64,000 nt of DNA, taken from Amoebophrya sp. A120. Its lineage: Eukaryota; Protista; Dinoflagellata. Below, one piece after another: positions 5,575 to 35,229 of this stretch (its first letter is position 1; every line of letters starts with the position of its first letter). The stretch covers positions 455,610 through 519,609 of the forward strand of contig CAJINV010000023.1 in the NCBI GenBank assembly GCA_905178155.1, in the 5' to 3' direction. A program made the position numbers and the translations under genes. The notes under the pieces were generated by a model, which saw only the letters and a list, made by a program, of their open reading frames with translations, had not been told where the DNA came from and did not search any database.

Positions 5575-6473
5575 GGTATGCAAGAAAAAAACTGTGTAAG
5601 TGTAACTCTGTAATGCAGAACATGCAAAAGATTTACACCTGTCATGCCAGACAGCCACGAAATCCTCTTTCCAGGTGTGTTTTCCCTTATAAGCCACGCA
5701 TGACAGGTTTTCTCTCTCATGTAGAGCAAATCTGTGATGCTGTCAGCCAAAGAAAGTTACACTAACACAGTTTTTTTCTTGGATACAAGGACGGCTTTTT
5801 CTGCTTATCCATCGTGATATTAAGTCTCTCTGTGGTCTTTTTAAAAATATTAGTTGCACCAAGAAAATAAACTACTCGACGCCGTTATTAATTTTGAAGT
5901 AGATCGGTGTTTATATGATATTTCATTTTCGATTCCTGGCATCTAGATCTAGTCTACTGATAGCTCCTTCTGAAAATAGGTGGATAGAGTGAGAAGAAGA
6001 AAGGAGATTCGAAACGCGCCGGCAAGAATCAGGACTCCATGTTGTATACTGTACTTTCTTCTGCTATCGCGATGTTGCCATGTACTATACCCGGAAGAGG
6101 AGCTATAGACCACTTCTGTGAGCAACTAGAAGTATGGATTCCAAAACCGAACGCGCAAGGACGAGATTGCAAAACCTACAAGGAATAGCTTACGACTGTT
6201 GGCTTTTGGGGAACTACGAAATGGATGAAACCTTCGGATGCTATGTGTGATCATCGGTCTTTCTTTATGGGGAAAGGTCTTTCGGATGCAAAACTTGCTG
6301 TGCGATCAGATAAAAATACTATTTCCGGAGGTGTTGACGTGGTAAATTATGGGAAAATTCTCTTCAATACTTTTTGTTCAGCGGAGGTCTTAGTGCTGGT
6401 CGGTAAGATATATTGAAAGAAAAGTGGCCAAAAAGATGTAAATTTATGCTCGTTTAAAATAAACAAAACCAAG

Positions 6474-9400
6474 ATGGTCGCTCGTGCTTGCGTCACCGGA
6501 ATTTATCTTGCCGTGAACTTCTGGTCTGCGATTTTGATAATATGGTCCGTGAAATGGGTACTGCTTGGCGGGTTTCACTGGACGGTGGCTCTCACTCTTT
6601 TACATGCGGGCACTACGGCCTTGGGCTTGCATCTGCTCTGGCGGGTGAGTTCTTCTCGAAAAAAGAACCTATCATCTCCTCTTGCGATTATTGAAGCCGG
6701 GCCTGGGCTGCACCAGAGTGCTGTACTAGTGAACAATATATCAAAATAAAAAATCCCCCCTCCCTATACTCAACAAACAAACGGAGATTTATTGTGTAGC
6801 GTGATTTGTGATCACACATCACCTCCGACTGTCACATGCTAGAAGGGAAGTAGAGATGCGGATTGTAGTGCTGGCTGGCGTAGGAAAGCCTTGCGTCTTC
6901 AACATGACAGGAAGCAACTAAAAGTAGATGAAACGGGAAACAGCATGACAAATTGCCCGCAAATGAGGTAGCGCCTGCGTCTCTTGGCCTTCTAGCAATA
7001 CATGTCGCAAATTTGTGTAGCCAAATGCAGCAGCACAAATTTCGTTTTGAATATTGGGAGGGGGGATTTTTCCTCACAGTACAATAATTACAAAAACAAG
7101 AATTCGAGCACATCAACTTCAAGATCAACCTTAGCTCCGGTGGTCGTGCCCAGAACATCATCTATCAAAAGGAAAAATCCCCCCACCCCATATCAAATGG
7201 GAAATCCGTGATGCAGGATTTGTGTACACAAATGCGCGCTGTCTTGCAATACGGCATCGCAGCCAGATCCGCAGCCTAGGGCGGCACGTTTTGGTCTAGT
7301 TGCTTAGCATTACAAACGGCTGGTCTCTGGGCCCAACAGTATGCCAAACCGCTCCCATAATGGCCGGGAAGCCTCTGCATTTGTCTTCTTGCAAGACAGA
7401 CGTGACTTGTGGTCTCAAATCAGCAAGACAAATTCTCGGAAGCATGCCTTCTCGACATGGGGAGGGGGGATTTTTCCTCTCAATATCATGTTCGAGCTCT
7501 TCGTCGCTGAGCACGCCACGGCGAGGAGCTGACGAGGAGCCACGATATGGCGTTCTCAAATGTTACATTCTCAACTGTTACATGATTTGTAATGCAAAAT
7601 CACAATCAGAATCGACACGATCGAGCTGCTTCGCATGGCAAATTCTCGAAGGGCCACACAGGCTGAGAATCTTTGTCAGATCTGTCATGCAAGACGCGCA
7701 AGGTGACCCCTTTCACTTTTGCCATTCTTGCATCACAAATCAATGTAACAGTTGAGAATGTAACACTTGAGGACGCCATACATGAGTTGTAGCGGATGTT
7801 GTCGTTGTTGAACTCGGTCTCGTATGCATTGCAAAAGCATCGTACTCGTATCAATGCATTACAAATTTCCTCAGCATGAGAAATAAAATTTGTAATGCAG
7901 ATTTACGTATGAAAAAAAGATTTGTAATGCATGGGATTACTACGAGTGCGATACTTTTGCGGTTCATATCTCGGTAAAAATGAGGCGGAGTTCATCAACA
8001 CACAGCCCTCTTGGGCGGGGCTGGAAAAAGAGGAAAAGGACCACCTTCGTGAACATCAAATTGGAGATCCACTTCATCTATCGAGTGCAAAAATCTCTGG
8101 GTCTGGAAGAGTGAGAGGTTTGTCATGCCTTATTTGCATGACCCCTGATGCCCGTAACGCATGGTCCAGCATCACAGATTTTTAGAGGACTTCCTGATGC
8201 CTGTTACGCATGAGAAATGCCTTCCCCACGTGGTACAATAAAGTGGACTCCTCTTCTTGGTTGCTGGTCATGCAGTACAAATTTTTTTAGAATCGAAAGA
8301 CAGCATCACAAGTTTGCATCCTCCCCGACCCGGACACTTTTGCATTTGATATCATCATGACGGCCAGAAAGCTGCAGCAGTTCGAGTGGTAGAAGATGAC
8401 GAGCAGGCCGCCGCCGGGGCAGAAGCAGATCCTCAGACGGCCGCGGTGGAGGAGCTGGACGAGGACCTCCGCTATGAACCGCAAATAAGCATCGTACTAG
8501 TATAAATTGCATTACAAATTTCCTCAGCATGAGAAATGAAATTTGCAATGCGGATTTAACTTGAAAAAAACATTTGTAATGTATGACTGCAATACGAGTG
8601 CGATTATACTTTTGCACAGGACCTCCGCCGAAGTTGTGCAACTACATGCGAAGATGGTTACGATCAACATCTCGACCGCCTGCGACTGATCGATAAGGAG
8701 ACCACGACGAGGCGCGACCACGACAAGGAACAACAGGAATTCTTGCATAAGTTCCACGGAGGTATTAAAGGCGTAAAAAGCCTCTCCAAGAACGAGGACG
8801 CCGACGGCGCGGGAGCAGCGTCCTCACGGGAGCTGCTGACTCCCCGGTGGGTCACCGACTTAACCTTTGCCGAGGCAAAGAAGCTATTCGCTTTGTCTCT
8901 CACCTACAGTTTTGGCATTCTGGTGAACAACAACTCTTTGCGGTACAATGCGGTTATGGATTGCAAATATCCCCGGATGTCTGGAAGGCTGCAACTTGTA
9001 ATGCTGTCTCTGGATTCTAAAAAAATTTGTACTGCGTGACCAGCAAGAGGACTCCAGTTTGTGCTACGCGGAAAGGGCATTTCTCATGCGGTAGAGGCAT
9101 CACAAAGTCGTCTAAAAATCTGTGATGCTAGGGGACACATGCATCACAGACAGCAAGGGTCATGGAATAAACTATGCGTGACAATAAATCTAGAAATATC
9201 TTCCCGACCCAGACATTTTTGCATTGGATAGTGGTCAGCATGTTCCAACTCTTAAAGGTGCTGATCACCCCGGTGATATGAAGAGGAAAAAGCTTGTCAC
9301 AGTCACGAAGTTGCAGGTTTGGCATTACAATTTTTTTCAGCATCACAACTTCTCCTTCTATTGCAGAAACACGAGGGATGAAATCCCTTATGAAGTGTGG

Positions 9401-12101
9401 CAGTGATGCATTTTTACGCATGACAGACAATTTTGTATTGCAAAAATGCCCATGAGTGATTATCGTGACGAACTTTTTTCTCTTGATAGGTCACGCTGCT
9501 GTTGCAATACGTGCTGTACGGAAAAACGGTCGGCAGACAGGAGGTGTGTTATGAACTGCAAATATCCCTGGACGTCTGGAAAGGTCGAACCTGTGTTGCG
9601 TGTTTCGCATATCTAAAAAACCTGTATTGCATAAGCAGCAAATAAAGCGCCGCAGACTTTCGTTATGCAAAAGCGCAGTTTGTAATGCGTTCTGCGCATG
9701 AGAACCAAGCGTTTGAAAAATGTGCCATGCTGCACTGCACTTAAAGGCACAGTCAACCATGACCATTCAGCATTACAAGTTTCCAGACATCCAGGGTGGA
9801 TATTTGCATTTCATGTGCGTGCGTTGGCGCTGATGTGTATCGGCACCACCATTGTATCAAATGCAAAAATGTCTGGGTCTGGAAGAATGCAAGATTTGTC
9901 ATGCATATTTCTCATGACCCATGATGCCTGTAATGCATGACCTAGCATCGCAGACCTTTAGAGGGCTTCCTGATGCACCTTCCGCATGAGAAATGCCCTG
10001 TCCGTGTCGCGCAAATTGTGCCCCTCTTGCTAGTCATGCAATGCAAATTTTTTTAGAGTCCAAAAACAGCATCACAAGTTGCAACCTTCCAGACCCAGAC
10101 ATTTTTGCAATGCATACATTGCCACCGTGTACCATTTGGAGGCCAACGCGTTTGGGTTCTTCTTCGGGATGCTCGGCGTGCTTTTGTCGAGCTTGCAGCA
10201 GATCTGGAACAGCGAATACCAGAAACAGCTGAAGCTGACGCCTCCGCAGCTGACGTACACCAGCAGTTGCTTCGCCTGTCTCACTATCAAATGCAAATCT
10301 GTCTGGGTCTGGAAGAACGTAGCTTTTTGTCATGCTGTTTTTGTAGGACACTGAAGGTCTGGCATGGACGCTCTAGCATCCCAGGTTTCGAGATGAATGT
10401 TCCGCAATGTTGCCTAATCCGCATGACAAACGCCCCATTTTGGTGACAGGGATTGGGCGTCTTTTGCTGCCTATGCATGAGAGATTTGCGTGCGTTATGA
10501 AATGCGCATCACAAGTTGCATTTTTCTTCCAGACCTCCCAGAGACATTTGCAATGCATACTCATCTTGGTGCCGCTGGTGTTTCTGCTGGAAAAGGATTT
10601 GTTCCCCCGTGGTCCTCCGGGGGCTGGAGAAGTTCTACTTGAAGAGGAAGCGTCATCTTCTTCTTCTGTTCCGCCAACAACTAAAGTACTTTTCTCCCCA
10701 CCTTCCTGGGCAAGTCCAGGCTTGGTGTTTTGGCTCTGCGTATCCTGCGTGGTTGCGTGCGTTGTTAGCATATCAAATGTAAAAATGTCTGGGTCTGGAA
10801 GAATGCATGTTTGTCATGCTTGTCTGGCATAACTCTGAAATCTGTCAGGCACGTTACCCAAGAGCTCCACTTTTCTGTGATGCAGAAACGTAGTTTGTTA
10901 TGCAGAATAGGCAACACCTAGAAGCTCAGAAACTTGTCATGCTGAGCCAGCATTTGTGGCCTCATCATGAGACGCCACCCAGCATCACAAGTTTCCAGAC
11001 CCAGACATTTTTACATTTGATATAGCACCAGTGCCGCGGGCGTGTTGGGCCACACGAGCCCGCTGACGTACCAAGTAATGGCCAGGATGTATCCTGAGTA
11101 AAAACGTCCCCACACCAGAGTTGTCATGCAGATTTGCCATGACAGGAACAGTTGTGATGCGCAACCCCATGACAGGCATTTTCAATCGTGTTTGGGAACT
11201 TGTGATGCTGTAAACAGGATCAGAGGGTCGATTTGTGATGCGGCTTTCCTTGCTAACTTGCACTACCTTACGGACTGAAACTTGTCACGCGTGACTCCTA
11301 AAACTCCGAGGTTTGTGTTGCAAAATCCCCAGCTTGACTCTGGTGTGGGGACGTTTTTAATCAGGATAGGACGAAGGCGGTGTTTATCGTCATGTCGGGC
11401 TATTTGGTTTTCAATGAAGAGCCGATATCAAAATGAAAAATCCCCCCTCCCCATATTGAAAAGCTATGTTTATTCCGAAAATTTGTGTTGCTGATTTGAG
11501 GTCACAAATCACACGCGTCTTGCATAGAGGACAAGTGCAGATGCTTCCGCCGCATTATAGAAAAGCGGTTTGTCATGCTGTCGAGCTTAAAGGAGAGCCG
11601 TTTGCCATGCTGAACAACTAGACCCATACGCCCCTTCTGCCTAGCCTGGGGATCTGGCCGCAATGCCTTCCTGCAATACAAAGCTGATTCGTGTACACAA
11701 ATCCAGCGTCAGAAATTTCGTTTTGATATGGGGAGGGGGGATTTTTCCTTGCAATAGCCGACCTTTCGTAGCTCCATCGGCATCTGCGTGTATCAAATGT
11801 AAAAATGTCTGGGTCTGGAAGAGTCCAAACTTGTGATGCGCATTTCAGAACACAGAAAGTTCTCTCATGCATAGGCAGCAAAAGCTGCCGACTTTCTGCC
11901 ACCAAAGTGGGTGATTTCTCATGCGGGTTCGGCATTGCGGAAGCTTCTCGAAACCTGTGATGCTAGAGCTTCCATGCCAGACCTTCCGTGTTATGCAAAA
12001 ACAGCATGACTCTTCCAGACCCAGACATTTTTACAGTTGATAGCGTGACAGCGATTGCCATTGTGTGGTACACGAAGCTGAAGCTTGCCGCCTATAACTG
12101 A
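6474..12101 (+). CDS. Nucleotide-sugar transporter, TPT/SLC35E3 clade (plant UXT/URGT-like), 15 introners
   Basis: Reconstructed frame: MVARAC..VNFWSAILIIWSVKWVLLGGFHWTVALTLLH, NNNSLRYNAVSMFQLLKVLITP, SSLQQIWNSEYQKQL, VLGHTSPLTYQVMARMKAVFIV..GYLVF, AIVWYT, TGA 12099-12101. Motifs follow the order of SLC35E3/URGT proteins. Substrate cannot be assigned from motifs alone. Confidence 0.85.
7546..7780. mobile_element. Introner family E (representative; 4 copies)
   Basis: TIR TATGGCGTTCTCAAATGTTACATTCTCAACTGTTACA / TGTAACAGTTGAGAATGTAACA.TTGAG.ACGCCATA; others ~19461, 29292, 45797. Confidence 0.9.
11090..11368. mobile_element. Introner family D (representative; ~11 copies, ~280 bp)
   Basis: TIR TATCCTGAGTAAAAACGTCCCCAC / GTGGGGACGTTTTTA.TCAGGATA; repeat ggatg/ggacg. 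Other starts ~2448, 5259, 17988, 18685, 25581, 32691, 46593, 46967, 47692, 50276. Confidence 0.93.
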
Positions 12102-12740
12102 GTTGATATAATAAACCATTGCTGATGTTGTTGGTACAGGACGAGGCAGCTGATGGCACTATTTTTACACAGAGCCCCGTGCAGCTGCTGCCCTCGCGAG
12201 ACGAGTTGTATGATAAAACATCTACACTTCCAAAAAAAATGTAAATTTTGTTTTTCTATTATTTCCGTGGACACATGCGTTTTACAATTTGTTCTCGCGT
12301 ATTGTTCTACAATCGCTATGGTGAAGGTTGTCTGATCGTTATAAAAAATTTGTTTTGCTACTATAATAAATGTTGAAGATGATGAACTTTGACAACTCTA
12401 GCGGTCGTTCTTGCTGATGTCGATATAAGTCTAAGATGTTGGATCAGGAGTCGAAAGAGGAACCCTATCGAGTTAGCTAAGATGGACGTTGTAAACAAGA
12501 CAAGAAATGGATCGGTGGACGAGGAAATCGAAAGAGATCTTCGTATGCAAGAAGTGCGAAGCTGCACGAGGAACAGCACGACCCGGTTGTTTCCGCTCGT
12601 GGTCCACCTTTGATAGCTCTAGCTCTTGCACCAGTTGTTGGGAAGAACAACAGCTAGAGGAACAACCTTCGTCTAGTACCCTTTCTCGTCGTGGCGCTTC
12701 CAAATAAAACGGCGGAGACGACTTGACGTTCCTGGGGACG

Positions 12741-15700
12741 ATGAGTATCCAGTGTAAAAATGTCTGGGTCTGGAAGAGTCATGCTGTTTCTGCATGCCAC
12801 AGAAGGTCTGGCATGGAAGCTCTAGCATCACAGGTTTCGAGAAGCCTCCGCAATGCCGAATCCGCATGACAAATCCCTGACTTTGGTGACAGAAAGTGGG
12901 AACTTTTGCTGCCTATGCATGAGAGAACTTTCTGTGTTCTGAAATGCGCATCACAAGTTTGGACTCTTCCAGACCCAGACATTTTTACATTTGATAATGA
13001 GCAGTCAGGAACATCAATCCTCGCGAGGGGGCCTTCGTCGGGCGCTAGCGTGCGTGTTATCAAGTGTAAAAATGTCTGGGTCTGGAAGAATGCAACTTGT
13101 CATGCTAAATCTGCAGCATGCAAAAATCTGTGCTGCATGATTACCAAAAGTCGTCCAGTTTTGACCAAGTCGGGAGGGAGTTTCTCATGCAGGATAGGCA
13201 TAAGAAAGGTCCCGCAGAATCTGTCATGCTAGGTCCTGCATTCCAGACCTCATGTGTCACGGAAAAGCAGCATGACAAATCGCGCATTCTTCCAGACCCA
13301 GACATTTTTACATTTGATACGTGTGTGTTGTCTATCAAATGCACCAAATATGTCTGGGTCTGGAAGATTGCGACATTTCTCGTGCTGGTCCGGCATGTTG
13401 ACTCTTAGCTCTGTATTTTTGCGTAGGGCCATCGAAACAGCCTCTCTGTCTTGTCTGTCATGCAAAAACGCAGTTCCTCGTACGGATTACGTAGCACAGA
13501 AGCACAAAAAAACTTGTCATGCTTGGCGGCGCATTTTTACAGTGCATTTGCTATTGACTGACCTGCATCACAAGTTTCCAGACCCAGAACGATATTTGCA
13601 ATGCATATTACCTGGCTCTTGTTGAGTTCGATCTATCCTGTGCAAAAAATATCGTACTCGTATCTATTCTTGCAATCATGCATTACAAATCTTTTTGTTG
13701 AGGTAAATCAGCATTACGAATTTTATTTCTCATGCTGAGAAAATTTGTATTAATGCATTTATAAAATAGAACTATAGAATTTTTACTCGGATTTCCCGCC
13801 CTTATAGATTATAGGGGCGCCCTTAGAAAATGAATTCTAGAAAAGAAGGCGTCTAGAGCATTCCCCTAGGGCTATTCCTTAGGGGATAGCCCTAGGAGAT
13901 AGCCCCAGGGGATGGCCTTAGGACGGTTGACTAGACGGCACACATAGAAACGCCGCAAGCGCAGCCGGTCGGTAAGCAGTTTACTTGCAGCGTGAGCTGT
14001 TTCACTCTGCAACGCAGGCCAAAAGGATTTGCGAGGGCAGGCGGCACCCTGCAGCGCAGGTCGCATCTTGCAACGGTAGCCGCCCAGGTGTTGCTGACAG
14101 CCCTTGCGGCCTGCGCTGCAAGTGGCTGCCCGCGCGGGCGGCGGTGCTTGCGAGTTCCGACAGCTTGGCTGCCTGGCAAAGACAGGCGAAGGAACGCGTG
14201 TCGCAAAATGAAGAAGACCCCGCAGAGCTTCCTACGGGCCCCGAGGCTCAAGGAAATCGAAAAAAAGCGGAAAAAACACCGGGCCGGTTTTTAGCAGGCC
14301 TATTCTGGCTAACCCCAAACCCCGGCCCCGTTTTGGGGGAGGTAGGGGGGGGCGATAGAACGTAGCAAAACGAAACGGGGGTGGGGGCGTCCCCCGGGCC
14401 TCAGGCAGATTAACACCATCCAAAAATATCTGGGCGGGGATATATCTGGGGATATATCTGGGGAGATATCTGGGGAGATATCTGGGGATATGTCGGGGGA
14501 TATGTCGGGGGATATATCGGGGGGTATATCTGGGGGGCTATCTGGGAAGATATCGGGAGATACATCTGGGGATACATCTGGGGGTATATCTGGGGATAAA
14601 AGAAAAGGGCAGCGCCTGCATTCTGAAGAAAGCGAGCGGCGCTGGGGGGGCCAGAAATCCTGCATGTGGTTGGCCTTCTCGCGGGCGGAAAATAGCACCC
14701 CAGTACAGCTTCCCTGCTCCGATTTCCCGACCTTATAGATTCGGAGGCTGGGTTTCCCATAGAAGTTATAGTAAGAGTGGAGGGAGTGGCGCTAAGAATT
14801 TCTTTGCCTTCTAGAGGCCTCGCTTAAAGGGCTTCGCTAGATCACGGCCTCGGTCGCTGGCTTAGAAAGCGCTGCGGGTGGTTCTTTGTAGAAGTCAAAT
14901 AGCTCAAGAAAGGGGAAGCAGGCCAAGGCCAGCGGCCGGGCTGGGACGGGGCACGCAGAAGCCCAGGGAACGAAGGCGGGCGCGTCCGTTTCTAATGCGG
15001 GCCGCTACTAGTGAAGGGCGTCGCTAGCAAGCGCGGGCCCGTTTTGTCATGCTAAAACCGCCTAGAGGGCTCCTCCTAGTGGCCGCGTCTCCGCTAGCAG
15101 ATTCACAATCGGGCGACTCTGTCGCCGAATTTGCTCCGCTAGCGTTTCAAGATAGTTTTTTGATTTTAGATTTACTAGACGACCTATCGCCGGCGTCCTG
15201 GACGCCGGCGTAGTAGTCTAGTACGAGTACGATATTTTTGTAGTTCATACGAGCAAGGGACCTGCAACTTCTACGTCTTCGTCAGGGCCCAGCGGTGGCT
15301 TCCTACGGTACGACCGTCATTGCGGTCTGCGACAAAGGAAATCGCCAGACAGAAGAGATGAAGAGGAGACGACCAGGAGGCATGATGCTGAAAATGAAAA
15401 TAATCATCTTCCTGCAGCAGCAGCGACTTCAAGAACATCAACTACAGGAGCTGTCACTACGACTAGGTCGACCTCCAAGAGTAGCTCCTCCTCGTCCTCG
15501 ACGCGGGTCGTGGTGCTGGTCACCGGCGCTGCTGGGTACATCGCGAGTCACTTTGTGCTCCTCTGCCTCACCAAGGGGCTTCACGTCGTGGGCGTTGACA
15601 ACTTGTCCCGGGGAAGTAGCGCAGCTATCGAGAAGCTGCACGCGGTCGCGTATCAAAGTGAAAAAAGCTCCCACCCCATATTCAAAAGACAATTTGTGTT

Positions 15701-18700
15701 GCTGGATTTGTGTACACAAATGAACTTTGTCTTGCAGCAAGAGCTTGTCGGCATATTCTAAGCCCATTTGGGTACGCGTCCGGCTAGCAGCTGAGCATGA
15801 GAGACAAGGCTGACATAGGCGAAAACGCGTGACAGTCTCGCTGTACAATGCGCCACATGGGTGTCGTTTGCCTTGTATGCAAGACAAAGCTGATTTGTGG
15901 TCACAAATCGGCATCACAAATCTTCGTTTCGATATGGGGAGGGGGGATACGATTTTCCTTACGATATCGTGGCTACCTTGAACCTGCCAAAGGACGCCTT
16001 CGTCTTCAAAGAAGTGGACCTGGGCCTTCCGTCCGCAGTGGCGGCACTCTTCCAAGAGCCGCAACAGGCTCCCTTTGTATGCATTGCAAATATGTCTGGG
16101 TCTGGAAACTTGTGATGCAAGGAAGGGAATAGTGAACCCACTGTAATGCGCTGCCATGCATGACAAACTTTTTTCATGGTTCTGAGTTCTTGCGTATTCC
16201 ACATGAGAAACTGCGTCTTTGCATGACAGGGAGGAGGAGCTCTTCGCGGCCACGCAATACAAAGTTCAGAGTAATGCCGGACTAGCATATTAACAAATCT
16301 CGCAATTTCCCAGACCCAGACATTTTTGCATTTGATACTTTGCGGCGGTGTTCCACTTCGCGGCCATCGCGTTTGTGGGGGAGTCGATTGCTTTCCCCGA
16401 CCTGTATCGCCGCAACGTGACTGCGAACACGGAAATCCTCGGTCGAGCCGCAAAAACAGCGGGCGTGCCACGGTTCGTGTATTCCAGCTCGTGCTCTGTG
16501 TACGGGCAGCCGGCAAACCCGGGGGAAGGTCTGGACGAGTCCGCGGCGATTCAGCCCCTGAGCCCCTACGCCTCAATATCAAAAGGTAAAATCGGGCCCC
16601 TCCCCAGATGATCAAAAGGAAATTTCTGATGCTGGATGTGCGTGCACATGCACAATAAATACAAAAAATATAAATCAGATTGTCTTGCAGAAAGTGCTTG
16701 GCGGCATTTTCTAGGCCTGTTTATTGGGTAATGATATGCAAAAGGCTAGCAATTAAGCATGTTGGCAAACAGGTTTGCACTTTGCAGTAGTCGAAATAAG
16801 CGCATGAGAATGACAGACTGGCTGTGGAATCATGCGCCAAATAGCTCCCACTACAACCCTACAGGCAAGCCAGAGGTGATTTGTGGCCACACTTCAGCAT
16901 AACAGATTTCCATTTTCATATGGTTTCGGGGGTGCTGGATTTTTCATTTCGATACCCGTCCAAGGTGGAGGCGGAAAAAGTGCTGCAAGCTCTCGCAGCG
17001 CCCTCCTTTCGCGTGAACATTTTGCGTTACTTCAACGTGATCGGCGCGGACCCCTTGCAGCGTCTGGGAGAAAACCCGCGGCCCGAGCTCCGGTCGTACG
17101 GCCGACTCTGGACGGCCTGCGTGGACGCCGCGCGCGGCGCCCGCCCCGCCGTCAAGCTACGCGTGGACCCGAAGACGGGAGACTACGCCAAACGTGACTT
17201 CGTGCACGTTTCCGACCTGGCTTCGGCCCACCTTTTGGCTTTCGACAAGGGTCGCCAATCGCGCGGCGATGAATATCCTGTGCAAAAGTATCGTACTCGT
17301 AGTAATTGCATTTATGCATTATAGCGTTAGTCGTGATGCATGCCCGCGCGTTAGCGCCTGGCACAGAATGAAAGTCGGTGCTGTTGTGAGAAAACCTTTT
17401 GTAGAAGAAGCTGCTATAGTCTATGGTGCCAGTTAGAAAGACCGTCGGTACGCAGCACGCGCGTAGAAGTAGACGGGTTTAGGGTATACCTACAAGCAGC
17501 GTTACAAGTTCAAAAGCAGAAAAGATTTCGTACAAGAAGCTAGTACTTATTTAATATGAGGATGATACAATAGACAGGGTTTAGGAAAAAGTCTGTGTTC
17601 AGACTTGGCGCGCTAGTTCGACTTTTGTTTCATTACAAGACCACTATGCGTGGCCCGCCCTGCGTATAGCATCGGGAAGCAATAGTCTTATTAGTGTAGT
17701 GCTATGGTGGAGGGTTTAACTGCTTTGCGGTGCCCGAGTCTGTCGAGCACAAGTAGTCGTACTTGGCGCAAGTTTTAGGCGCTACGCTACTCGCCACACC
17801 GCACCCGTACCCGTACCCGTACCCGTACAAATCTACACCCCAAGGTAAAACAGCATGACAAATTCCATTTGTCATGCTGAGGAAATTTGTAATGCCATTA
17901 CTACTAGTGCGATGCTTTTGCAATTCATGATGAATCAGCTGCAGCAACAAGAACTACCTCCGAACAAGAAGAAACTGTGTTGACCGTTATCCTGCGAAAA
18001 AACGTCCCCACCCCATAGTCAAGTTGGGAACTTAGCAACACAAATCCAGAAGTTTTGGGAGCCACGCATGACAAGTTGCAGTCCGTAGGGTAGTGCATGT
18101 TAGCAAGGACAATTGCATCACAAATCCGTCTGCTGATCCTGTTTACAGCATCACAAATTCCAAAACGCGATTGGTAAGCATAGGCATGGACATGCGCATT
18201 ACAAATCTTCCTGTCATCGGAAATCCGCATGACAACTCTGGGGGGAGCGCGTTTTTACACAGGATAACCGTCCACAACGTAGGTCTCGGGAAGCCAAATT
18301 CGATCGCCGAGTTCGTGGAAAGTTTCCGCGCTGTGTCCGGTGTGGACGTGAAGATAGAAACGGAGCCCCTCGTATGAAATGTAAAAGTGTCTGGGTCTGG
18401 AAGAATGCAACTTGTGATGCTGAATTTGGATTCCAAAAAAATCTGTATTGCATGAGCAGCAAAAGGAACGCAATTTTTGCTACGCGGAGAAGCATTTGTC
18501 ATGCGGAATAGGCATCGCGAAGCCCTCAAAAAATATGTGATGCTAGGGCATGCATCACAGACATCATGGCCAATGCAAAACATGCATGACAAGTCTCAGA
18601 ATCTTCCAGACCCAGACATTTTTACATTTGATACCTCGGGAAAGAGGAGCCGTTGCAGTTGTTCGCGAAGAGCGCGAAGATACTATCCTGAGTAAAAACG

Positions 18701-21700
18701 TACCCACACCAGAGTTGTAATGCAGATTTGCAAAGACATGGAGACTCGTAATGCGCATCCCCATGAGGGCCATTTCCAATCGTGTTTTGGAATTTGTGAT
18801 GCTGTGAACAGGATGAGAGGCTTGCTTTCTCATGCGGCTGCCCTTGCTAAACAGCACGACGCTACAGATGAAAACTTGTCATGCAAACCTCCCAAAACTT
18901 GGAGATTTGTGTTGCAGATTTACCAACTTGACTATGGGGTGGGGACGTTTTTACACAGGATAGATACAGCGGGACCTAGAGTGGAAGCCGAGGTTTACGG
19001 ATTTCAAATATGTCTGGGTCTGGAAGGTTGGAACTTGTAATGCTGTCTGCGGATTCTAAAAATATCTGTGTTGCATGATGAGCAGCAAGAGGACCCACTT
19101 CTTGGCGCGCGGAGACGGCATTTCTCATGCGTGATTAGCATCAAGAAGCTCTCAAAAAATCTGTGATGCTAGCACCAGCATCACAGACCTCACGGGTCAT
19201 GCAAAATGTGCATGACAAGCCCCGACTCTCTCAGACCCAGACATTTTTGTAGTTGATGAGGTTTACGGATTTGCGCGAGATGCTGCGCACCGGTTGGGCC
19301 TACGAGGTCAAAGCTCGAGGACAAGTTGTACAAGCTCTTGCAGAGAACAACAAGGGGAAAAGCGACGGCGCAACTGCTAGTACAAAAATCGCGCCAACGT
19401 CGGCAACTACACTTTCACCTTCATCTCCTGCTGATACCACCGATTCCCCGTTTCCGTTTATATGGCGTGCTCAACTGTTACGACATTCTCAACTGTTACA
19501 TAAATTTGTGATGCAAGAATGGCAAAACTGAAAGGAAGAAGATTTTTTTTGCGCCTTCTGCATTACATGGAAATAAAACAGGGTATGACAAACCATGGAA
19601 ATAAGACAGTTGAGTTTGTAACGTTTGCGTCGAGTCTGATAGTTTAACCGCACGGAGTATCAAGTGCAAATATGTCTGGGTCTGGAAGGTTGCAACTTGT
19701 CATGCAGATTTTACATGACCCGTGACGTCTGTGATGTACTCCCTAGTATCACAGATTTTCTGACTATGTCTTGATGCCTATTCCGCATGACAAATGGCCT
19801 CCCCGCGTAGCACAGACTGAACTCCTCTTGCTGGTCATCCAATACAGTTTTTTTTAGAGTCCAAAGCTAGCATCACAAGTTGCAACTTTCCAGACGCAGA
19901 CATATTTGCATTTCATACGGAGTTTGACACCCTGTTGGCAGCCGGGCAGGCGCGGCAACAGAAATTTGGGTACGTTGTCGTGCTGTTCTTCAACCAGGGG
20001 TTCGTGAAGATGATGAAGAGTTGGATCTGTAACGTGAAGAAAGTCGTGGGCCCGAATTGGCTTGCGGACCACGCGCTCTTTATTGCCACGGAGCGGCAGG
20101 CTGGACAGCAGCTGCAACTGTTTGACACCGGGTTGAGCATTGTGTACGTGACCTACATATCAAATGCAAAAATGTCTGGGTCTGGAAGAGTTCCAGACTT
20201 GTCATGCAGGTTTTCCATGTCCCGTTAGGTCTGGCATGTAGGACATAGCACGACAGATTCTGTGCGAGTTCCATCATGCCTATCCTGCATGAGAAACTGC
20301 CTCGCGATTAGGTCAAAAGTGGACAGCTTTTGGTAAGCTTGCAACACAGATTTTTGCACGCTTCAGATTTAGCATGACAAGTTGCATTCTTCCAGACCCA
20401 GACATTTTTCCAGTTGATACTACAAGATGCCGGCCGTAATTCGGTACGGGCAGGCTGTGTACGGGAGTTTCCTCCTGTGGTATGCATTGCAAAAGCTAAA
20501 GCATCGTACTAGTATAAGTAAATTGAATCACAAATTTTGGCAAGAGGAAATAAAGTTGAATTTGTAATGTTGTTTTACCTTAGGATGAAGATTTGTCATG
20601 CATATTTGCAATTAGTACGAGGAGAGCGATAGTACTTTTGCACAGGATATGTGGCGTGGCAAGTTGATTCGCGAGCTTCTGCAAGCCAAGCTGACGGTGT
20701 GGCAGGTGGAGGCAGACGCGTACTGGTCTCGAGACCCTTCCTATCCAAGAAAAAACGTTGTTATTGTAAATTTGTGAAGATGCGCAACATGCAAATTGAT
20801 TGCGCCTGTCGTGCTGTGCCTGCATTGTAGGGTCCATTCAAAGGCGTTTTCGCGTACTATCTGCGCATGACAGGTTATTTTTCCTGTCATGCGAGAGCCG
20901 AAAGATTTTTGATTTTGTCATGCTAATCCTCCAAGAAAGTTGTGTTACACCTACGTACGATCTTTTTTTCTTGGATACTTCCGAGGAGGTGCTCCAGCAA
21001 GAGGCAGACATTGTGACCATGTCGGACATGCCGCCGCCGGGAAAGTACCTGAACGGGGGCTTTCTCCTCGCGAAGCCTTCGGAGGCAAACTTGAAGGTGT
21101 GGAGCGAGGTGATCCGGAGGATGGAAAACGTGGTCCGAGGAAAAACGAAGGACGTGGGGGAGGCGGGGAACGACCAGCTTTACTTTCCGCCGGCCCTGAA
21201 ACGACACGTATCGTACGAAAAAAGTGTTTCACTGTAAGGATTTTGCATGTTTTGCATCGCAAGCTTGTTCTACATGACAGAGAAAATTTGCCATGCAAGC
21301 TTCCCAAGGGAAACAAAACACAGCTAAAACCCCACTTTCTTGCATGTGTAGCAAGACAAATACTTGTGTGTTCCATTTTATCATCATGCATCACAAGTTT
21401 ACAGTAACACAGTTTTTCTTGTGGATAACACGGTGCGAAGGTGCACTGGCTGCCGCCGAACCGGTATTGTGGGGAAAAATCCCCCCTCCCCATATTGTAA
21501 CGGTATGTTTCCGAAAATTTGCGTTGCTGATTTGTGGGCACAAATCACATTTGTCTTGCAAGAAGGCAACTCCACGGGCTCCGCCGCATTATGCAGGCGG
21601 TTTGTCATGCTGTTGGGCCTACAGCGCGGACGTTTTTAATGCGAAGCGCCTAGGCCAACACCTCGCTACTCCCGCTTGGATTGGGCCTGCAGTCCTCTCC

Positions 21701-23704
21701 TGCAAGACAGCTTGAATCTGTGTACGCAAATCCAGCATCAGAAGTTTCGTTTTGATATGGGGAGGGGGATTTTTTCCTTTTGATAACCGGTTCGCCTGTG
21801 GCGTCTGGTACCGGAACCCGAAATATCCTGTGCAAAAGTATCAGATACTCGTATTGCAATCATGCATTACAAATCTTGTTCTTACGCTAAATCCGCATTA
21901 CAAACAAGGTCCGAGCACGGGGACAGAGTCCCCGTGCGGCGACCTTCCGGCAATTGTCTGGGACGAGTTCGGGGGTTGTGGTGGCTGGCACTGGGCAGGC
22001 AGGCCCCTGCAGCCCGGTGTCTCTGTGTGGCCTGCGCCCCCTGATCCGCGGCAGATCTGCGGACGGAGCCCCTCTGCTTGCCCACACTAGGCCCGTTGGC
22101 CTACCGCGAACAAAGAGAACAGAAAGGAAGAAGCTGGCGCCGGATGTGTAGCTGGCCCCTAGGTCATGACGCGGGGACCGAGTCCCCGCGCTGACCTAGG
22201 GCTTTTGCCCCTGGGCCGTGCGGTTAGTTTCCGGGAAGCGCCCAAAGCTGGCCCCTAGGTCATGACGCGGGGACCGAGTCCCCGCGCTGACCTAGGGCTT
22301 TTGCCCCTGGGCCGTGCGGTTAGTTTCCGGGAAGCGCCCAAAGCTGGCCCCTAGGTCATGACGCGGGGACCGAGTCCCCGCGCTGACCTAGGGCTTTTGC
22401 CCCTGGGCCGTGCGGTTAGTTTCCGGGAAGCGCCCAAAGCTGGCCCCTAGGTCATGACGCGGGGACCGAGTCCCCGCGCTGACCTAGGGCTTTTGCCCCT
22501 GGGCCGTGCGGTTAGTTTCCGGGAAGCGCCCAAAGCTGGCCCCTAGGTCATGACGCGGGGACCGAGTCCCCGCGCTGACCTAGGGCTTTTGCCCCTGGGC
22601 CGTGCGGTTAGTTTCCGGGAAGCGCCCAAAGCTGGCCCCTAGGTCATGACGCGGGGACCGAGTCCCCGCGCTGACCTAGGGCTTTTGCCCCTGGGCCGTG
22701 CGGTTAGTTTCCGGGAAGCGCCCAAAGCTGGCCCCTAGGTCATGACGCGGGGACCGAGTCCCCGCGCTGACCTAGGGCTTTTGCTCCTCGGCCGTGCGGC
22801 TAGTTTCCGGGAAGCGCCCAAAGCCGGCCCCTAGGTCATGACGCGGGGACCGAGTCCCCGCGCTGGCCTAGGGCTTTTGCCACTGGGCCGCGCGGTTAGT
22901 TTCCGGGAAGCGCCCAAAGCTGGCCCCTAGGTCATGACGCGGGGACCGCGTCCCCGCGCTGACCTGGAGCTTTTGCCCCTGGGCCGTACGGTGTCCGGGA
23001 AGCGCCCAAAGGAAGCTGGCCCCCAGGTCATGACGCGGGGATTGGGTCCCCGCGCTGACCGAGGGCGCCTTTCGCCCCTGGGCCTTGCCCACGGGGCCCG
23101 GTAAGCTCGACAGGCTGGCGGCTCGCGTGACAAACTGGAGGCCGGCATTGCGCATCTCGCGTGGCGAGGTCCCAAAGTGTGTCCGGCGTGTGTCCGAAAG
23201 TCTGCCCGGGGTGTGTCGGAAAGTCTGCCCGGGGTGTGTCCGGGGTGTGTCTGGGGTATGTTCGGACTTTTTGCCTGGGGTGTGTTCGGGGGTCTGTCTG
23301 GGGTATGTCTGGGGTGTGTCTGGGGTGTGTCTGGGGTATGTTTATACCCCACCTGTTGCTTTTTCGCCAAAAATTTGTATTCAGGTCGTGATTGACTGCC
23401 ATTTGCATACCCCTGACACACCCCCGAACATACCCCCGAACATACCCCTCGCATGCATTTTTGACCAGCTGCTGCAGTTTAGATAGTAATTTCATTTCTC
23501 ATGCTGAGGAAATAATTTGTGATGCATTTATACGAGTACGATACTTATTTTGCAATGCATACGAAAATTTTTCAAAAAAACTCCACCACCTTGCCCACCG
23601 TCATTTTGAACAATTGGGTGGTGGGGAACGCCAAGAAAGTGGAACGCGCCATTAAGTGGAAGCACTGGTTTCTGAACGACGAAGAAACGGAGTGCTTGCC
23701 GTAG
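12741..23704 (+). CDS. Fusion protein: N-terminal TM anchor + MUR4/UXE-like UDP-xylose/arabinose 4-epimerase (extended SDR) + GT77 (Nucleotid_trans) glycosyltransferase, 20 introners
   Basis: ATG 12741 (in-frame TAA upstream); hydrophobic ALACVCVVWLLL. Epimerase motifs: VLVTGAAGYIASH, DNLSRG, HFAAIAFVGES, YSSSCSVYG, PYAS(S/T)K, LRYFNVIGADP..RLGE.PRPELR..GR...AC.DAARG, RDFVHVSDL, HNVGLG. No stop in the linker (19264-19657). GT77-like motifs: FNQGFVKMMKSWICN, QVEADAYWSRDP, YLNGGF, GNDQ, ILNNWVVG..KKVERA..WKHWFL. TAG 23702-23704. Confidence 0.85.
13762..15221 (+). mobile_element. Non-autonomous Helitron-like element (family 1) nested in a family C introner
   Basis: Inserted at A|T (gcattta|tacgag). 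3' end is hairpin CGCCGGCGTCC-T-GGACGCCGGCG followed by TAGTAGTCTAG. Internal 12-bp tandem repeat 14428-14597. 5' end shared with 26521-27424. Confidence 0.75.
17322..17827 (+). mobile_element. Insertion with (CCCGTA)4 tail in family C introner 17274-17929; possible decayed non-LTR retroelement 3' end
   Basis: Interrupts gcatta|caaat; simple-repeat tail at 17804-17827; weak remnant NCFAVPESVEH resembling a LINE C-terminal zinc-knuckle segment. Confidence 0.45.
21905..23489 (-). mobile_element. Helitron-like element (family 2) nested in family C introner 21824-23561
   Basis: Interrupts gcattacaaa|tttcatttc at A|T. Minus-strand 5' end TTACTATCTA is shared with 43544. Terminal hairpin aaggtc..gcacggggac/gtccccgtgc..gacctt at the other end. 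Confidence 0.6.
22150..23085. repeat. 96-bp tandem repeat, ~9.5-10 copies, each a long hairpin
   Basis: Unit agctggcccctaggtcatgacgcggggaccgagtccccgcgctgacctagggcttttgcccctgggccgtgcggttagtttccgggaagcgcccaa begins at 22150, 22246, 22342, etc.; the last copies diverge. Confidence 0.97.
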
Positions 23705-24604
23705 GTTTGATTTCTGTGGTCACCTGCTGTGCAGCTCCTTCGACTAGAATAATTCATTTTGCAATCGGCGACTCGCACCACTTCCAAAATTGTCGTTTTT
23801 GTCGCCCTGACTTGGTCCACCTCGTCTCCGGGTCATTATGCTAGTATTAATGGCAATGACTTCTGGTCGTGTGATTGGAAAGAGATTCGATTTTTCTTCT
23901 ACGTCATTGCTTTATATTTTCACTTTCACACTTTCTTATTTTTATACATCACTTTTCTTTTCTTTTTACGTATATAAATGAGACCAACAAGGTCCTCATA
24001 TCAATCAAAAACCGTTTTAATATAGTAGGCGTCCCAATACTAATTGTTTTATGTTTGTTTGTTTACGGTCGGACTGCACGGCCACGTATCAAAATGAAAA
24101 ATCCCCCCTCCCCATATTGAAAAGCTATGTTTCCGAAAATTTGTGTTGCTGATTTGAGGTCACAAATCACATGCGTCTTGCAAGAAGACAAGGGCAGAAG
24201 CTTCCGCCCCATTATGGTAGCGGTTTGCCATGCTGTTGGGCTTAAAGAGGAGCCGTTTGCCATGCTGAACAAGTAGACCCATACGCCCGCGCCTAGCCTG
24301 GGGATCTGGCCGCGATGCCTCTCTGCAATACGCAGCTGATTTGTGTACACAAATCCAGCATCAGAAATTCCGTGGTGATATGGGGAGGGGGGATTTTTCC
24401 TCTCAATACCACGACTTTTTTACTTCCTCGTAACGGGCATGGCCCGCTATAGGAATCTCTTGCTGCATGATATGCCTTGCAAATATCCTTGGATCATGTC
24501 TGGAAGATTCTGAGACTTGTCATGCGCGTTTTGCGTGAGCCATCATGCGCTAGCATCACAGAATTTGGAGGGCCTTCTGATGCGTTATAATTTCGCACGA
24601 CAAG

Positions 24605-25505: not shown

Positions 25506-28500
25506 ATGGGTGTGCCCGGTTCCGGAGGTTCCGGCCCGGGAAGGTCTGGCTCGGATGAGGCGGGACGACCCGGCTTTGGGTACCCTGTGTAAAAACGTCA
25601 CCACCCCAGAGTTATCATGCAGATTTGCAATGACAAGAACTGAACATTTGTGATGCGCACCCCCATGTCAACATGACTACAGGCATTTTCAATCGTGTTT
25701 GGGAATTTGTATATGCTCTAAACGGATAAGCAGATGGATTTGTAATGCGGCTGTCCTTGCTACCTTGCACTACCTTACGGACTGCAACCTGTCATGCGTG
25801 ATTCCCATAACTCCTAGGTTTGTGTTGCAAAGTCCCCATCTTGACTCTGGGGTGGGGACGTTTTTACTCAGGATATTGGGGCGCGTGTCGCCAAGGCTGT
25901 GCTGCTTTGCGTGTACATCTTCCTTGGCGTATCAACTAGAAAAATTCCCCCACCCCATATCGAAAACGAAATTTGTGATGGTCTATTTGAGTACACAAAT
26001 CGACTTGTAATGCTAGAAGGCCAAGAGCCGCAGTTATGGCCTCGTTTGCAGGCAATTTGTCATGCTGTTTCCCACTTCCAGTTGCTTCCTGTCATGCTGA
26101 AGATGCAAGGATATGGGGAGGGGGGATTTTTCTTCTTGATATGGCGCGTCTATGATGTTGTCCGTGGAGATCACGAAGAGCGTATGCGTTGCAAATATGC
26201 CTGGGTCTGGAAGAGGGTCACTTGTCATGCTACATCTGGATCGTGGAAAAATTTGTGTTGCATCATTGCCAAAAGAGGTCCACTTTTGAACAAGTTTACA
26301 GGCAGTTTCTCATGCAGAAAAGGCATGAAAAAGATCTCACAGAACCTATCATGCCAGGCCGTGCATGCCAGTCCGCGTGGGTCATGGAAAACCTGCATGA
26401 CAAACCTGGCAATCTTCCAGACCCAAACATTTTTGCATTTGATAGAGCGCGAAAACCAACAAAATTGAATACAGCACGCAACAGGCCGTCCTTATGAACT
26501 GCAAAAGTATCGTACTCGTACTAGACCACTACGCCGGCGTCCAGGACGCCGGCGATAGGTGGCCTAGTAAATCTAAACGCAACTACCAAGCAAACTAACA
26601 ACAAAGAGGAGAAAACTTGGAGAGCGTTGGGCTGAAGACTAGTCGGAAGAAGCCTGCTCTTGGGAATCTGCTAGCGGAAACGCGGCCACTATTCGAAGCC
26701 CTTCGGGCCGCGGTTTTAGCATGACAAAACGGGCCCGCACTTGCTACTGAAGCCTTTCACTAGTAGAGGCCCACATTAGTAGACGCGCGCGCCTTCGCTT
26801 GCGGGGCTTCTTCCTAACAAGCTCGCCCCCGCCCGACCCGGCCGTCGGCCTTGGCCTTGGCCTAATCCCCCGCTTTTGGGCTGCCCGCCTGATCTCTAGA
26901 GGAGGCCTCTCCCCAGATCTCTCCCCAGATCTCTCCCCAGATATCTCCCCAGATATCTCCCCAGATATCTCCCCAGATATATCCCCAGATATATCCCCAG
27001 ATATATCCCCAGATATATCCCCAGATATATCCCCAGATATATCCCCAGATATATCCCCAGATATATCCCCAGAGCGTTGTGAGTGCCCTTGCCCTTTTGG
27101 CGGGAAAGGCCGCCCTTTTCGTTTTGCATGCGTGCCGAGTTTCATCGCCCCCCCCTACCCCCCCAAATGGGGCCGGTGTTTGGGTGTAGCCGGAATAGGC
27201 CTGCCAAAAACCGGCCGGACCGCCCGCAGGGAGGACACACCTGCAGGATTTTTGTTCCCCGCGATGCCATTTTTTTCTTACGCGTGTTCACTTAGAAGCT
27301 TCCCTTAGGGGCTCCCTTAAGGAAAGTTTCTAGATGCCCTTTTTTCTAGAATTCTTTTTCTAAGGGCGCCCCTATAATCTATAAGGGCTAAAAATCCGAG
27401 TAAAAATTCTATAGTTCTATTTTATAAATGCATTACAAATTTCCTCAGCATGAGAAATAAAATTGGTAATGCTGATTTGCCTTCAGAAAAAAATTTGTGA
27501 TGCAAGACTTGCATTTATACGAGTGCGATGCTTTTGCATTGGATAGTCCTGGCGATCGAGGCACTGAAACTCGCAATTTGCTACCTACTCATTCACTATC
27601 AAATGCAAAGCTGTCTGGGTCTGGAAGGTTGAACCTGTATTGCATGTTTCGCAATTCTAAAAAACCTGTATTGCATAAGCAGCAAATAAAGCGCCACATT
27701 TTCGTGATGTTACAAAAGCGCAGTTTGTCATGCGTTCTGCGCATGAGAATAAAGCGTTTGAAACATTTGTCATGCTGCGCTGCACTTACGGGCGCAGTCA
27801 ATCATGACCATTCAGCATTACAAGTGTCCAGACATCCAGGGATATTTGCAATCCATATTCACTTCGGGCCCGCAATCCTCCACAGTTTCGACGCCGACGG
27901 AGGGTCGTCTACTTACGAGTTCGACAAGGATCAAACTTCGTGGCGAAACTGGTTTCGATACGGCGGCCCTGCCTTGTGTTACGTATCAAATGCAAAAATG
28001 TCTGGGTCTGGAAGATTCCGAGATTTGTCATGCAGTTTTTCCAAGCTCCCCCACGTCTGGAATGCAGGGCCTAGCATCACAGGTTCTGCAGCTCCTTGGT
28101 GATGCGTATTCTGCATGAGAAATGCCCTCTCAGCATGGCCAGAAGTAGGGACCTTTTGCACGTTATGCATCACAGATCTCTGTGGGATCCGAAACACGCA
28201 TCACAAGTTCGGATCCTTCCAGACCCAGACATTTTTACATTTGATATTACGCACTGCAGAACAACGTGAACATCTACGCCATTTCCCTGCTCGGCGCGCA
28301 CGTTTTTTCTCTTTTGTGCTATGGATCGCAAAAATGTCCGCGTCTGGAAGATTGCAGCTTGTAATGCTGTCTTTGGATTCCAAAAAAATCTGTATTGCAT
28401 GAGCAGCAACTGGACTCCAGTTTGTGTTACGCGGAGAGGGCATTTCCCATGCGGAATAGGCATTAGGGAGCCCTCTAAAAATCTGCGTTGCTAGATCATG

Positions 28501-34500: not shown

Positions 34501-35229
34501 CTCCTGGCTCGTGTTCGCGAAGAAAATTGACGCGGGCTTCGTGTTATATGAAAATGAAAAATCCCCCCTCCCCATACCGAAAGGGAGATTTGTGTAGCAT
34601 GATTTGTGACCACAAATCATGTTGTCATGCTAGAAGGGAAGAGATGCGGATTGTAGTGCTGGCTGGCGTAGGAAAGCCTTGCGCCTTTAGCATGACACAA
34701 AGCAACTGGAAACGGAAAACAGCATGACAAATTGCCTGCAAACGAGGGAGCAGCTGCGTCTCTTGGCCTTCTAGCAACACAATTCGATTTGTGTACTCAA
34801 ATACAGCAACACAAATTTCATTTTGGATATGGGGAGGGGGGATTTGTCCTCACAATATGTTAGGATTTTTAGTCTACACCGTGGCCAGCTACGAGTACGT
34901 CCGATTCCCCGAGGATCCGGAAGCAGCGATGAAAAAAAATAGGAAAACCGACCACGAACCTGTCCCAACCGCCGAGGAGGCAGTCGACGAGGAGGAGGAC
35001 GACAGCCAAGTAATAATATGAATTGCAAAACAAGTATCGTACTCGTCCTCGTCGTATAAATGCATTACAAATTATTTCCTCAGCACGAGAAATGGAATTC
35101 GTCATGCTGATTTGCCTTGGCAACAAGATTTGTAATGCAAGTAGACTTGCATTTTTTATACGAGTGCGATACTTTTCTTGCACGGGATAAATAGAAGTGG
35201 ACGTCGAGGACTCGGTATCCGACAAGTAG
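25506..35229 (+). CDS. SLC35A-family nucleotide-sugar transporter with ~400-aa hydrophilic loop; 21 introners plus one 1.27-kb insertion
   Basis: Reconstructed motifs: YSTQQAVLAIEALK, PALCYALQNN, KLMFSAVFARVLLKQKFSEVQWLAI, LSGFAGILNEWLLK, GLSVSGILKYYDNIVKNFA; TAG 35227-35229. Continuity requires removal of 30037-31306; otherwise it stops at 30335. Confidence 0.8.
26521..27424 (-). mobile_element. Non-autonomous Helitron-like element (family 1) nested in a family C introner
   Basis: Reverse-complement ends match 13762-15221 (TAAAATAGAACTATAGAATTTT...; same hairpin + CTAG); (ATCTCCCCAGAT/ATATCCCCAGAT)n array ~26907-27073. Confidence 0.75.
30063..31304 (+). mobile_element. 1.24-kb insertion with short A-tail and 28-bp target-site duplication inside a coding exon
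   Basis: aggtggaacgacagaagaggagttagct at 30035-30062 and 31305-31332; A-run 31298-31305; internal gagagggtc-type repeats ~30530-30790. Confidence 0.8.
33032..33261. mobile_element. Introner family H (3 copies; others ~38458 and 43499-44721)
   Basis: Ends TAT(G/A)AC(A/C)TGCTC / GAGCAGGTTATA with subterminal GTTACAATCTCAAATCGGTTACCAT; repeat acgag. Confidence 0.85.

Follow-up and report, generated by a model that had tools for sequence, protein, structure and literature searches.

A single spliced gene of the dinoflagellate Amoebophrya sp. A120 encodes one protein in which a nucleotide-sugar 4-epimerase is fused to a GT77-type glycosyltransferase (GT). The gene lies in a 64,000-nucleotide (nt) stretch of contig CAJINV010000023.1 (assembly GCA_905178155.1, forward-strand positions 455,610 to 519,609), hereafter the window, whose numbering is used throughout. 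The fusion combines known modules in a new way, and the protein is already public but unnamed. The original prediction, made from the letters of the DNA, had correctly set the start at 12741 (ATG) and the stop at 23702-23704. It had also spoken of one frame, which holds after splicing only, as the genomic DNA is divided into 21 coding exons by 20 introns.

12400-24086, + strand: transcribed unit of the fusion gene, from single spliced contigs in sequencing runs X1, X3 and X4, with the 5′ untranslated region (UTR) starting at about 12400.
12741-23704, + strand: coding span, 793 amino acids (aa) in 21 coding exons, from the contigs and from identity to database protein P0001.
12741-12744, 13001-13056, 13324-13331, 13612-13632, 15254-15649, 15971-16076 and 16342-16575, + strand: coding exons 1-7.
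16959-17272, 17934-17986, 18271-18371, 18638-18682, 18967-18994, 19263-19459 and 19646-19656, + strand: coding exons 8-14.
19922-20156, 20424-20479, 20654-20740, 20982-21207, 21432-21463, 21790-21822 and 23566-23704, + strand: coding exons 15-21.

The exon borders follow a -1/+4 cut rule, described below, and most can slide within a 5-nt repeat. Spliced contigs bridge the linker between the two domains in all four RNA-like runs (X1-X4), and in three of the four the whole gene stands on a single contig. The X1 contig, of 3396 nt, extends from 12410 to past 24086 with the exons joined at the introns; whole-gene contigs with the same spacing were found in X3 (3700 nt) and X4 (3358 nt), and X2 holds two contigs, the 1939-nt one linking epimerase exons with GT exons. 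These four runs represent one sample from one study, are RNA by our guess and are possibly the source data of the annotation; rare isoforms drop out of contig evidence of this kind. Around the linker, exon 19263-19459 is followed by an intron, an 11-nt micro-exon (19646-19656), a further intron and the first GT exon at 19922. Both X1 and X2 join 19460 to 19917, with five intervening letters supplied by the micro-exon, so that the transcript neither ends nor stops between the domains. An isoform that kept intron 19460-19645 would meet a stop at 19531 and encode the epimerase alone.

Joining the exons by their coordinates reproduces the positions in the contig records and yields a 793-aa open reading frame with an in-frame stop upstream. 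It is identical to P0001, ‘unnamed protein product [Amoebophrya sp. A120]’, the sole protein retrieved with one exon as query (793 aa, 100% identical). The spliced contigs together with the open frame rule out misassembly, read-through and two separate genes. For the DNA-like runs (X5, X6), the longest pieces listed show no splicing and span exon-intron borders, and no intron-less DNA copy of the joined form was seen among the X5/X6 pieces and joints listed. Runs X7 and X8, from another study, gave 75 and 5 reads, partial and mostly of intron repeats, and are uninformative on expression.

The protein divides into an anchor, a stem, two catalytic domains and a linker, as follows.

13046-13633, + strand: hydrophobic segment preceded by an Arg-Arg pair, aa 16-30, spread over three small exons (Kyte-Doolittle).
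15255-15506, + strand: Ser/Thr-rich stem, aa 31-114, with S, T or P at 34 of the 83 residues of aa 31-113.
15507-19312, + strand: extended short-chain dehydrogenase/reductase (SDR) 4-epimerase domain, aa 115-472 (Pfam, TIGR01179, residue table, trees).
19313-19919, + strand: linker, aa 473-524, including micro-exon 19646-19656 (joint seen in X1 and X2).
19920-23701, + strand: Nucleotid_trans (GT77-type) domain, aa 525-793, GT-A fold (PF03407, AlphaFold2, fold matches).
20709-20717, + strand: E641-A642-D643, the ExD form of the DxD motif (159-row alignment).

All epimerase and GT77 motifs picked out in the original prediction are present in the translation. Where it placed an N-terminal transmembrane anchor, hydropathy shows a hydrophobic segment (Kyte-Doolittle scores of 2.56 for a 15-mer and 1.81 for a 19-mer). 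Its Ser/Thr/Pro linker is present too, with 20 S/T/P and one N-glycosylation sequon among 52 residues. Residues 16-30 are predicted to form a type II signal anchor, with a cleaved signal peptide as the alternative. The hydropathy pattern as a whole (basic N-terminus, hydrophobic segment, stem) would fit a type II Golgi topology.

The C-terminal domain scores above the cut-off of PF03407 (52.7 bits over aa 608-775, against a cut-off of 22; E = 7e-14), which we take to correspond to CAZy family GT77, and supports its earlier assignment as a GT77-type domain. An Atlas feature search agrees, with 29 of 30 matches being PF03407-only clusters (best score 0.97). An AlphaFold2 model built on 74 sequences reached a predicted local distance difference test (pLDDT) score of 96.9 and a predicted TM-score (pTM) of 0.93; in these sequences the D643 column is invariant and E641 nearly so, and six invariant GT columns are retained in P0001. 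The fold is predicted to be a GT-A fold closest to retaining enzymes. Its matches include xylosyl- and alpha-galactosyltransferases, which we place, partly by assumption, in GT8, GT24 and GT6: 3tzt (Z 14.6, root-mean-square deviation (rmsd) 3.3, 210 aligned), 6mw8 (Z 14.4, rmsd 3.7, 215 aligned) and, at the top of the Foldseek matches, the UDP-Gal alpha-galactosyltransferase 6mw5. A search by sequence returned no solved GT77 structure (one chance match, E = 0.74), and no GT77 entry stands among the fold matches listed.

Relatives of the GT domain were drawn from 602 matches at E up to 0.001, of which the best 150 were taken. The original prediction had noted EAD in place of DxD; this is the norm in the GT subgroup, with ExD at this position in 150 of the 159 aligned rows (DxD in one, other letters in two, gaps in six). 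Twenty of the best 150 were looked up by name; the named ones belong to diatoms, a chrysophyte and hemichordates, with no plant-named protein among the 20 (no plant reference sequences were compared). In the Atlas, the neighbouring clusters come mostly from haptophytes, chlorophytes, nematodes and giant viruses.

The N-terminal catalytic domain is an extended SDR. Pfam Epimerase (PF01370) matches aa 117-375 with 134 bits (cut-off 20.9), and the Gly-rich NAD motif is accompanied by S247 and a YxxxK motif (Y273, K277). The residues identified are G121/G124/A127, D145, S247, Y273, K277, N301, R324 and R354, among which the catalytic S247, Y273, K277, N301 and R354 are all retained. Its best solved relatives are GalE enzymes (7k3p, E = 4e-44), and it stays below the GalE equivalog cut-off (TIGR01179, 224.6 bits, E = 1e-66; cut-off 262.3). 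At positions 207-208, 248 (C248) and 324 the protein is of green UXE type, unlike eukaryotic GalE, by a residue set (A-Y/F at 207-208, C248, R324) that was derived within this analysis and has no published source. A207-F208 matches green UXE (A in 10/10, Y/F in 10/10), where eukaryotic GalE has K (16/16); at R324, arginine is found in 22/22 rows of the marine clade described below, 10/10 green UXE and 12/12 sister-group rows, as against N in 15/16 eukaryotic GalE.

For the phylogeny, 100 matches among proteins of 436-1388 aa were collected, a length window that favours fusions, and 93 domain-length rows were kept of the 101 with a match. In this tree P0001 falls in a 57-row branch together with land-plant UXE (SH-aLRT 99) and is nested in a 23-row marine clade (support 99), whose lineages are Amoebophrya, Paulinella, Thalassiosira and uncultured organisms; the named members are Paulinella chromatophora and Thalassiosira sp. 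Approximately unbiased (AU) tests of grouping with GalE and with green UXE were run on 36 of the 93 rows. Here the marine clade has support of 100, and grouping with eukaryotic GalE is rejected (p = 0.001). The best Atlas whole-protein match is a 922-aa cluster of 85 members, mostly diatoms (score 0.95), with Epimerase as its only Pfam domain.

On these data we favour, at a probability of roughly 40%, a reading in which UDP-xylose (UDP-Xyl) would be converted in the lumen to UDP-L-arabinopyranose (UDP-Arap) and the sugar then transferred by the tethered, retaining GT to a surface glycan. The 793-residue protein would be Golgi-anchored with both domains luminal, and a neighbouring transporter would supply the donor precursor. 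The epimerase would turn the imported UDP-Xyl into UDP-Arap, the tethered GT would use this product, and retention would leave beta-L-arabinopyranose on the glycan. In plants, UXE is a membrane enzyme of the Golgi lumen (PMC8636097, PMC6861824) whose reaction, making UDP-Arap there, is reversible (PMC8636097); plant arabinofuranose (Araf) donors require a cytosolic mutase and re-import (PMC8636097, PMC6861824); and the plant GT77s characterised so far transfer pentoses, either arabinose or xylose (PMC3797821, PMC4908140). Coupling would arise from tethering and local concentration through the flexible linker, with no tunnel. Direct channelling between the domains, as first imagined, finds no support: the 52-aa linker is of low complexity, the Atlas whole-protein model has a pTM of 0.53, and the many fusion partners of both modules weaken the case for it.

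A number of observations weigh against this arabinopyranose reading. The AU test rejects a grouping with green UXE (p = 0.0006), for which the reference rows are homologues from databases (Fraxinus, Oryza, Closterium, Chlamydomonas and unnamed) and not MUR4 itself; the branch uniting all UXE-like groups in the 36-row tree is weak (74), and the 23-row marine clade includes no characterised enzyme. The RxGD motif, to which we assume a role in UDP binding, is lost near the domain C-terminus in P0001 and in 21/21 scorable clade rows; the other four groups keep it in 45 of 46 rows (9/10 green UXE, 10/10, 13/13, 13/13). Nucleotide-sugar binding may thus differ. The earlier MUR4/UXE-like label therefore stands as to its UXE-type, non-GalE residues, and fails as to membership of the green-plant MUR4/UXE clade. 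Because the epimerase lies outside that clade and lacks RxGD, its UDP-xylose/arabinose substrate is one that we infer, and the domain is best called a UXE-type 4-epimerase by sequence. On the GT side, no characterised GT77 that uses UDP-Arap was found in the literature searched, in the portions of it available, and the family and cargo of the neighbouring transporter are unconfirmed.

The missing RxGD, together with the third Rossmann glycine replaced by Ala (A127, shared by 0/22 clade rows) and long end branches (0.85-0.93), might also suggest that one domain is a decaying or regulatory passenger. We regard this as very improbable: the catalytic residues are intact, the Gly-to-Ala change recurs in 6/12 sister-group rows, the RxGD loss is clade-wide, P0001 retains all six invariant GT columns in a domain that is modelled with confidence, and proteins evolve fast throughout Amoebophrya (PMC7789003).

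The company kept by the epimerase clade also tells against the arabinopyranose reading. A GLF domain (UDP-galactopyranose mutase) is present in 10 of the 23 marine-clade rows, so that UDP-Glc/Gal and furanose donors stay in play. As GLF-type mutases act on UDP-Gal and on arabinose only inefficiently (PMC6861824), this cuts against a pure pentose reading. A hexose system is one candidate, in which the epimerase would interconvert luminal UDP-Glc and UDP-Gal and the GT would be a retaining alpha-galactosyltransferase. It would suit the GLF domains, whose known substrate is UDP-Galp, and the leading Foldseek match to 6mw5, though fold matches at 10-15% identity are no guide to the donor. Dictyostelium AgtA, presumably a GT77, adds alpha3-Gal. 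L439 aligns with the GalE gatekeeper position, a correspondence drawn from the alignment, where UDP-Glc/Gal-only enzymes have Leu (PMC10482301), and one plant UGE subclade is active on both sugars (PMC3220709). The UXE-type residues at 207, 208, 248 and 324, the rejected eukaryotic GalE clade and the score under the TIGR01179 cut-off all speak the other way, and we consider the hexose system unlikely.

All ten epimerase-GLF fusions (P0153, P0156, P0158, P0159, P0161, P0169, P0171, P0179, P0191 and P0199) have a hydrophobic N-terminal segment (15-mer scores of 1.7-3.2), which suggests luminal synthesis of furanose donors. They come from marine protists, with Paulinella and Thalassiosira named, and two of them additionally carry DUF707. 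On the model of Araf transfer by plant RRA, XEG113 and RAY1, the Amoebophrya epimerase could make the donor in its pyranose form, which a luminal GLF-type mutase, as a separate enzyme, would convert to UDP-Araf or UDP-galactofuranose (UDP-Galf) before the GT transferred the furanose. The anchored epimerase-GLF fusions would fit such a route, and the arabinosylating GT77s do include a beta-arabinofuranosyltransferase, but P0001 has no mutase domain, and fusing steps one and three with step two apart would be less economical. We hold this furanose route to be improbable.

Both modules, finally, combine with other domains. The epimerase is present in just one (P0036) of the 149 other matches among the best 150 GT relatives, and 24 of 47 long GT matches carry other Pfam domains (FkbM methyltransferase, GT2, GT47, GT61), so that the GT appears to fuse freely; in a second set of long GT matches the proportion is 3/16. 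Within the marine clade the epimerase is fused to GLF, to a STELLO domain (one row) or to GT77 (P0036/P0250), and some members stand alone with an anchor. The two domains of P0001 might accordingly be co-targeted and not work in series, the GT using another donor such as UDP-Xyl and the epimerase feeding a luminal pool, with the fusion as one of many module shuffles among marine-protist glycosylation proteins. The epimerase reaction is reversible (PMC8636097), UDP-Xyl is the donor of RGXT1/2 (PMC2793385), and locus L014 encodes a 2277-aa multidomain protein. The same domain pair nevertheless recurs in reverse order, and the other named partners of the clade are donor-processing or transfer enzymes, as expected of pathway-linked fusions, which leaves mere co-targeting rather unlikely.

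The recurrence in reverse order is that of the metagenomic P0036/P0250 (one 90% cluster), which contains a GT-A-like domain, FkbM methyltransferase, Nucleotid_trans and the epimerase. Because its GT domain does not group with that of P0001 (AU p = 0.038), it is probably a second, separate fusion, which speaks for the reading that we favour. A common origin of the two epimerases is not rejected (p = 0.137), a point against that reading.

Related architectures were noted alongside. A second group of UXE-like epimerases, of about 1100-1230 aa, is fused to a flavin-binding, amine-oxidase-like domain (P0184, P0185, P0187, P0189, P0190, P0198, P0202 and P0203; Prymnesium named). Two gene-dense marine metagenomic contigs encode intron-free giant glycosyltransferase/methyltransferase polyproteins of up to 2277 aa (L014:7028-21433 and L002:716-8376). 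The 2277-aa protein of L014 has GT61, GT2, methyltransferase and Nucleotid_trans domains; the L014 polyproteins adjoin an SLC35A-type transporter and those of L002 an anchored stand-alone epimerase of the marine clade. No orthologue in other Amoebophrya strains was named among the 1, 3 and 100 matches of word- or length-limited searches, which does not imply absence. No relative was found in the viral contigs scanned with P0002 and P0036, and P0155 led to three distant loci at 28-34%.

Compared with known systems, the Amoebophrya protein shares with plant UXE/MUR4 the extended SDR with an N-terminal anchor, the broad tree branch, the residues at 207/208, 248, 324 and 329 and an RLGExPRPELR-type segment; it differs in its separate clade, the lost RxGD, Trp at 326, the C-terminal GT and an identity of about 38%. 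With the plant GT77s (the beta-arabinosyltransferases RRA1-3, XEG113 and RAY1, and the RGXT xylosyltransferases) it has in common Nucleotid_trans, the GT-A fold and a putative type II Golgi layout, whereas its ExD in place of DxD, its non-plant nearest named relatives (20 of 150) and its epimerase set it apart. GalE has the same S/Y/K catalytic set and provides the best Protein Data Bank (PDB) sequence matches, but P0001 is below the TIGR01179 cut-off, carries Ala for Lys and Arg for Asn at two active-site positions and bears an anchor. P0036/P0250 belongs to the same epimerase clade (42% identity) and the same ExD GT subgroup (33%), again in one chain, yet in reverse order, with almost no linker, with extra domains and with a GT that is not sister. 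Plant RHM, the two-domain UDP-rhamnose synthase, and yeast GAL10 (1z45) are also fusions of nucleotide-sugar enzymes (PMC3220709); unlike P0001, they join interconverting enzymes and not a donor-maker and a transferase.

The introns that interrupt the gene belong to an unusual class.

12745-23565: 20 introner-type introns of 174-1743 nt, mostly with TAT...ATA terminal inverted repeats and a 5-nt direct repeat.

A GT-AG reading is possible for one intron of the 20, and the terminal inverted repeats starting with TAT, direct repeats at the borders and non-GT-AG ends agree with the definition of A120 introners. Introner introns of this strain are described as having repeats that begin with TAT and short direct repeats, and as having splice sites whose place with respect to the hairpin varies (PMC7789003). 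In our gene, a left cut one base short of the TAT repeat and a right cut four bases beyond the ATA repeat fit 18 of the 20 introns, one more in a second check and the last by reading the sequence. The rule removes exactly one 5-nt duplication, is compatible with all 20 introns and is constrained by four with imperfect duplications; intron 16576-16958, which splits the YxxxK motif, alone fixes the cut to a single base. The intron that can also be read as GT-AG lies at 18990-19257 and has a 15-nt flanking duplication.

Short elements bounded by terminal inverted repeats abound in the region. In the fusion transcript, the 3′ UTR continues past 24086 across another intron, being spliced across an introner at 24087-24413 (a loose end in X3 and X4). 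By reading, the long introns 13634-15249 and 26493-27545 share a related nested element that contains short tandem repeats and is oppositely oriented in the two, and intron 21824-23561 holds an array of approximately 80-nt tandem units at roughly 22150-23050.

Three further genes flank the fusion on the same strand.

1-5870, + strand: second upstream neighbour, a Cas1/RWA-type O-acyltransferase (PF07779) whose 5′ end lies beyond the window.
6474-12100, + strand: upstream neighbour, a multi-spanning membrane protein with its own transcript (separate contigs of 1908 and 1939 nt; predicted translation).
25506-35230, + strand: downstream neighbour, likely an SLC35A-type nucleotide-sugar transporter (predicted exons).

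The acyltransferase rests on exon 3992-4252 (PF07779, E = 7e-13, 48.6 bits). The original prediction had an adjacent UXT-like transporter; the flanking genes are indeed transporter-like, while the label UXT found no confirmation. By its motifs we assume that the upstream neighbour resembles the TPT-type nucleotide-sugar transporters (UXT/URGT group), but none of the five short exons tested matched the TPT family (PF03151), and a PDB search with one of its exons gave no transporter match. For the downstream neighbour, one of six exons tested matched PF04142 below the cut-off (E = 0.005, 16.5 bits); Pfam searches at exon level were mostly blank for the transporters. Both transporter-like neighbours have long low-complexity insertions in a central loop (29530-31668 and 7083-8780), and the downstream one has a further large insertion at about 30030-31320. 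The four adjacent glycan genes on the + strand of window 1-35230 suggest a small cluster.

No published description of an epimerase-GT77 fusion or of this gene was found in titles and abstract openings, a search that took in few subscription papers, in line with the first impression that the domain architecture was unfamiliar. We tentatively propose that a marine-protist clade of secretory-pathway 4-epimerases, having lost RxGD, builds luminal donors by fusing the next enzyme of the pathway, a flavin mutase in many members and GT77 here. In that case P0001 would act as a self-feeding beta-L-arabinopyranosyltransferase, and luminal furanose donors would come from its mutase-fused relatives. If this is true, beta-L-arabinopyranosyl transfer would be a GT77 activity undescribed in the literature searched, as far as the available portions of it go, and the mutase-fused relatives would bypass the cytosolic detour that plants need for furanose donors.

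Because a probable donor-maker is attached to it, P0001 offers a direct route to the donor of the ExD GT77 subgroup, whose members number in the hundreds across diatoms, haptophytes, hemichordates and marine metagenomes. The possible small glycan gene cluster belongs to a parasite of bloom-forming dinoflagellates, in which surface glycans could matter for host recognition. More broadly, the findings point to a luminal route to arabinose or galactofuranose donors in marine protists, and the marine clade, in which luminal epimerases would be joined to the enzyme that follows in the pathway, may outweigh the single gene in worth.

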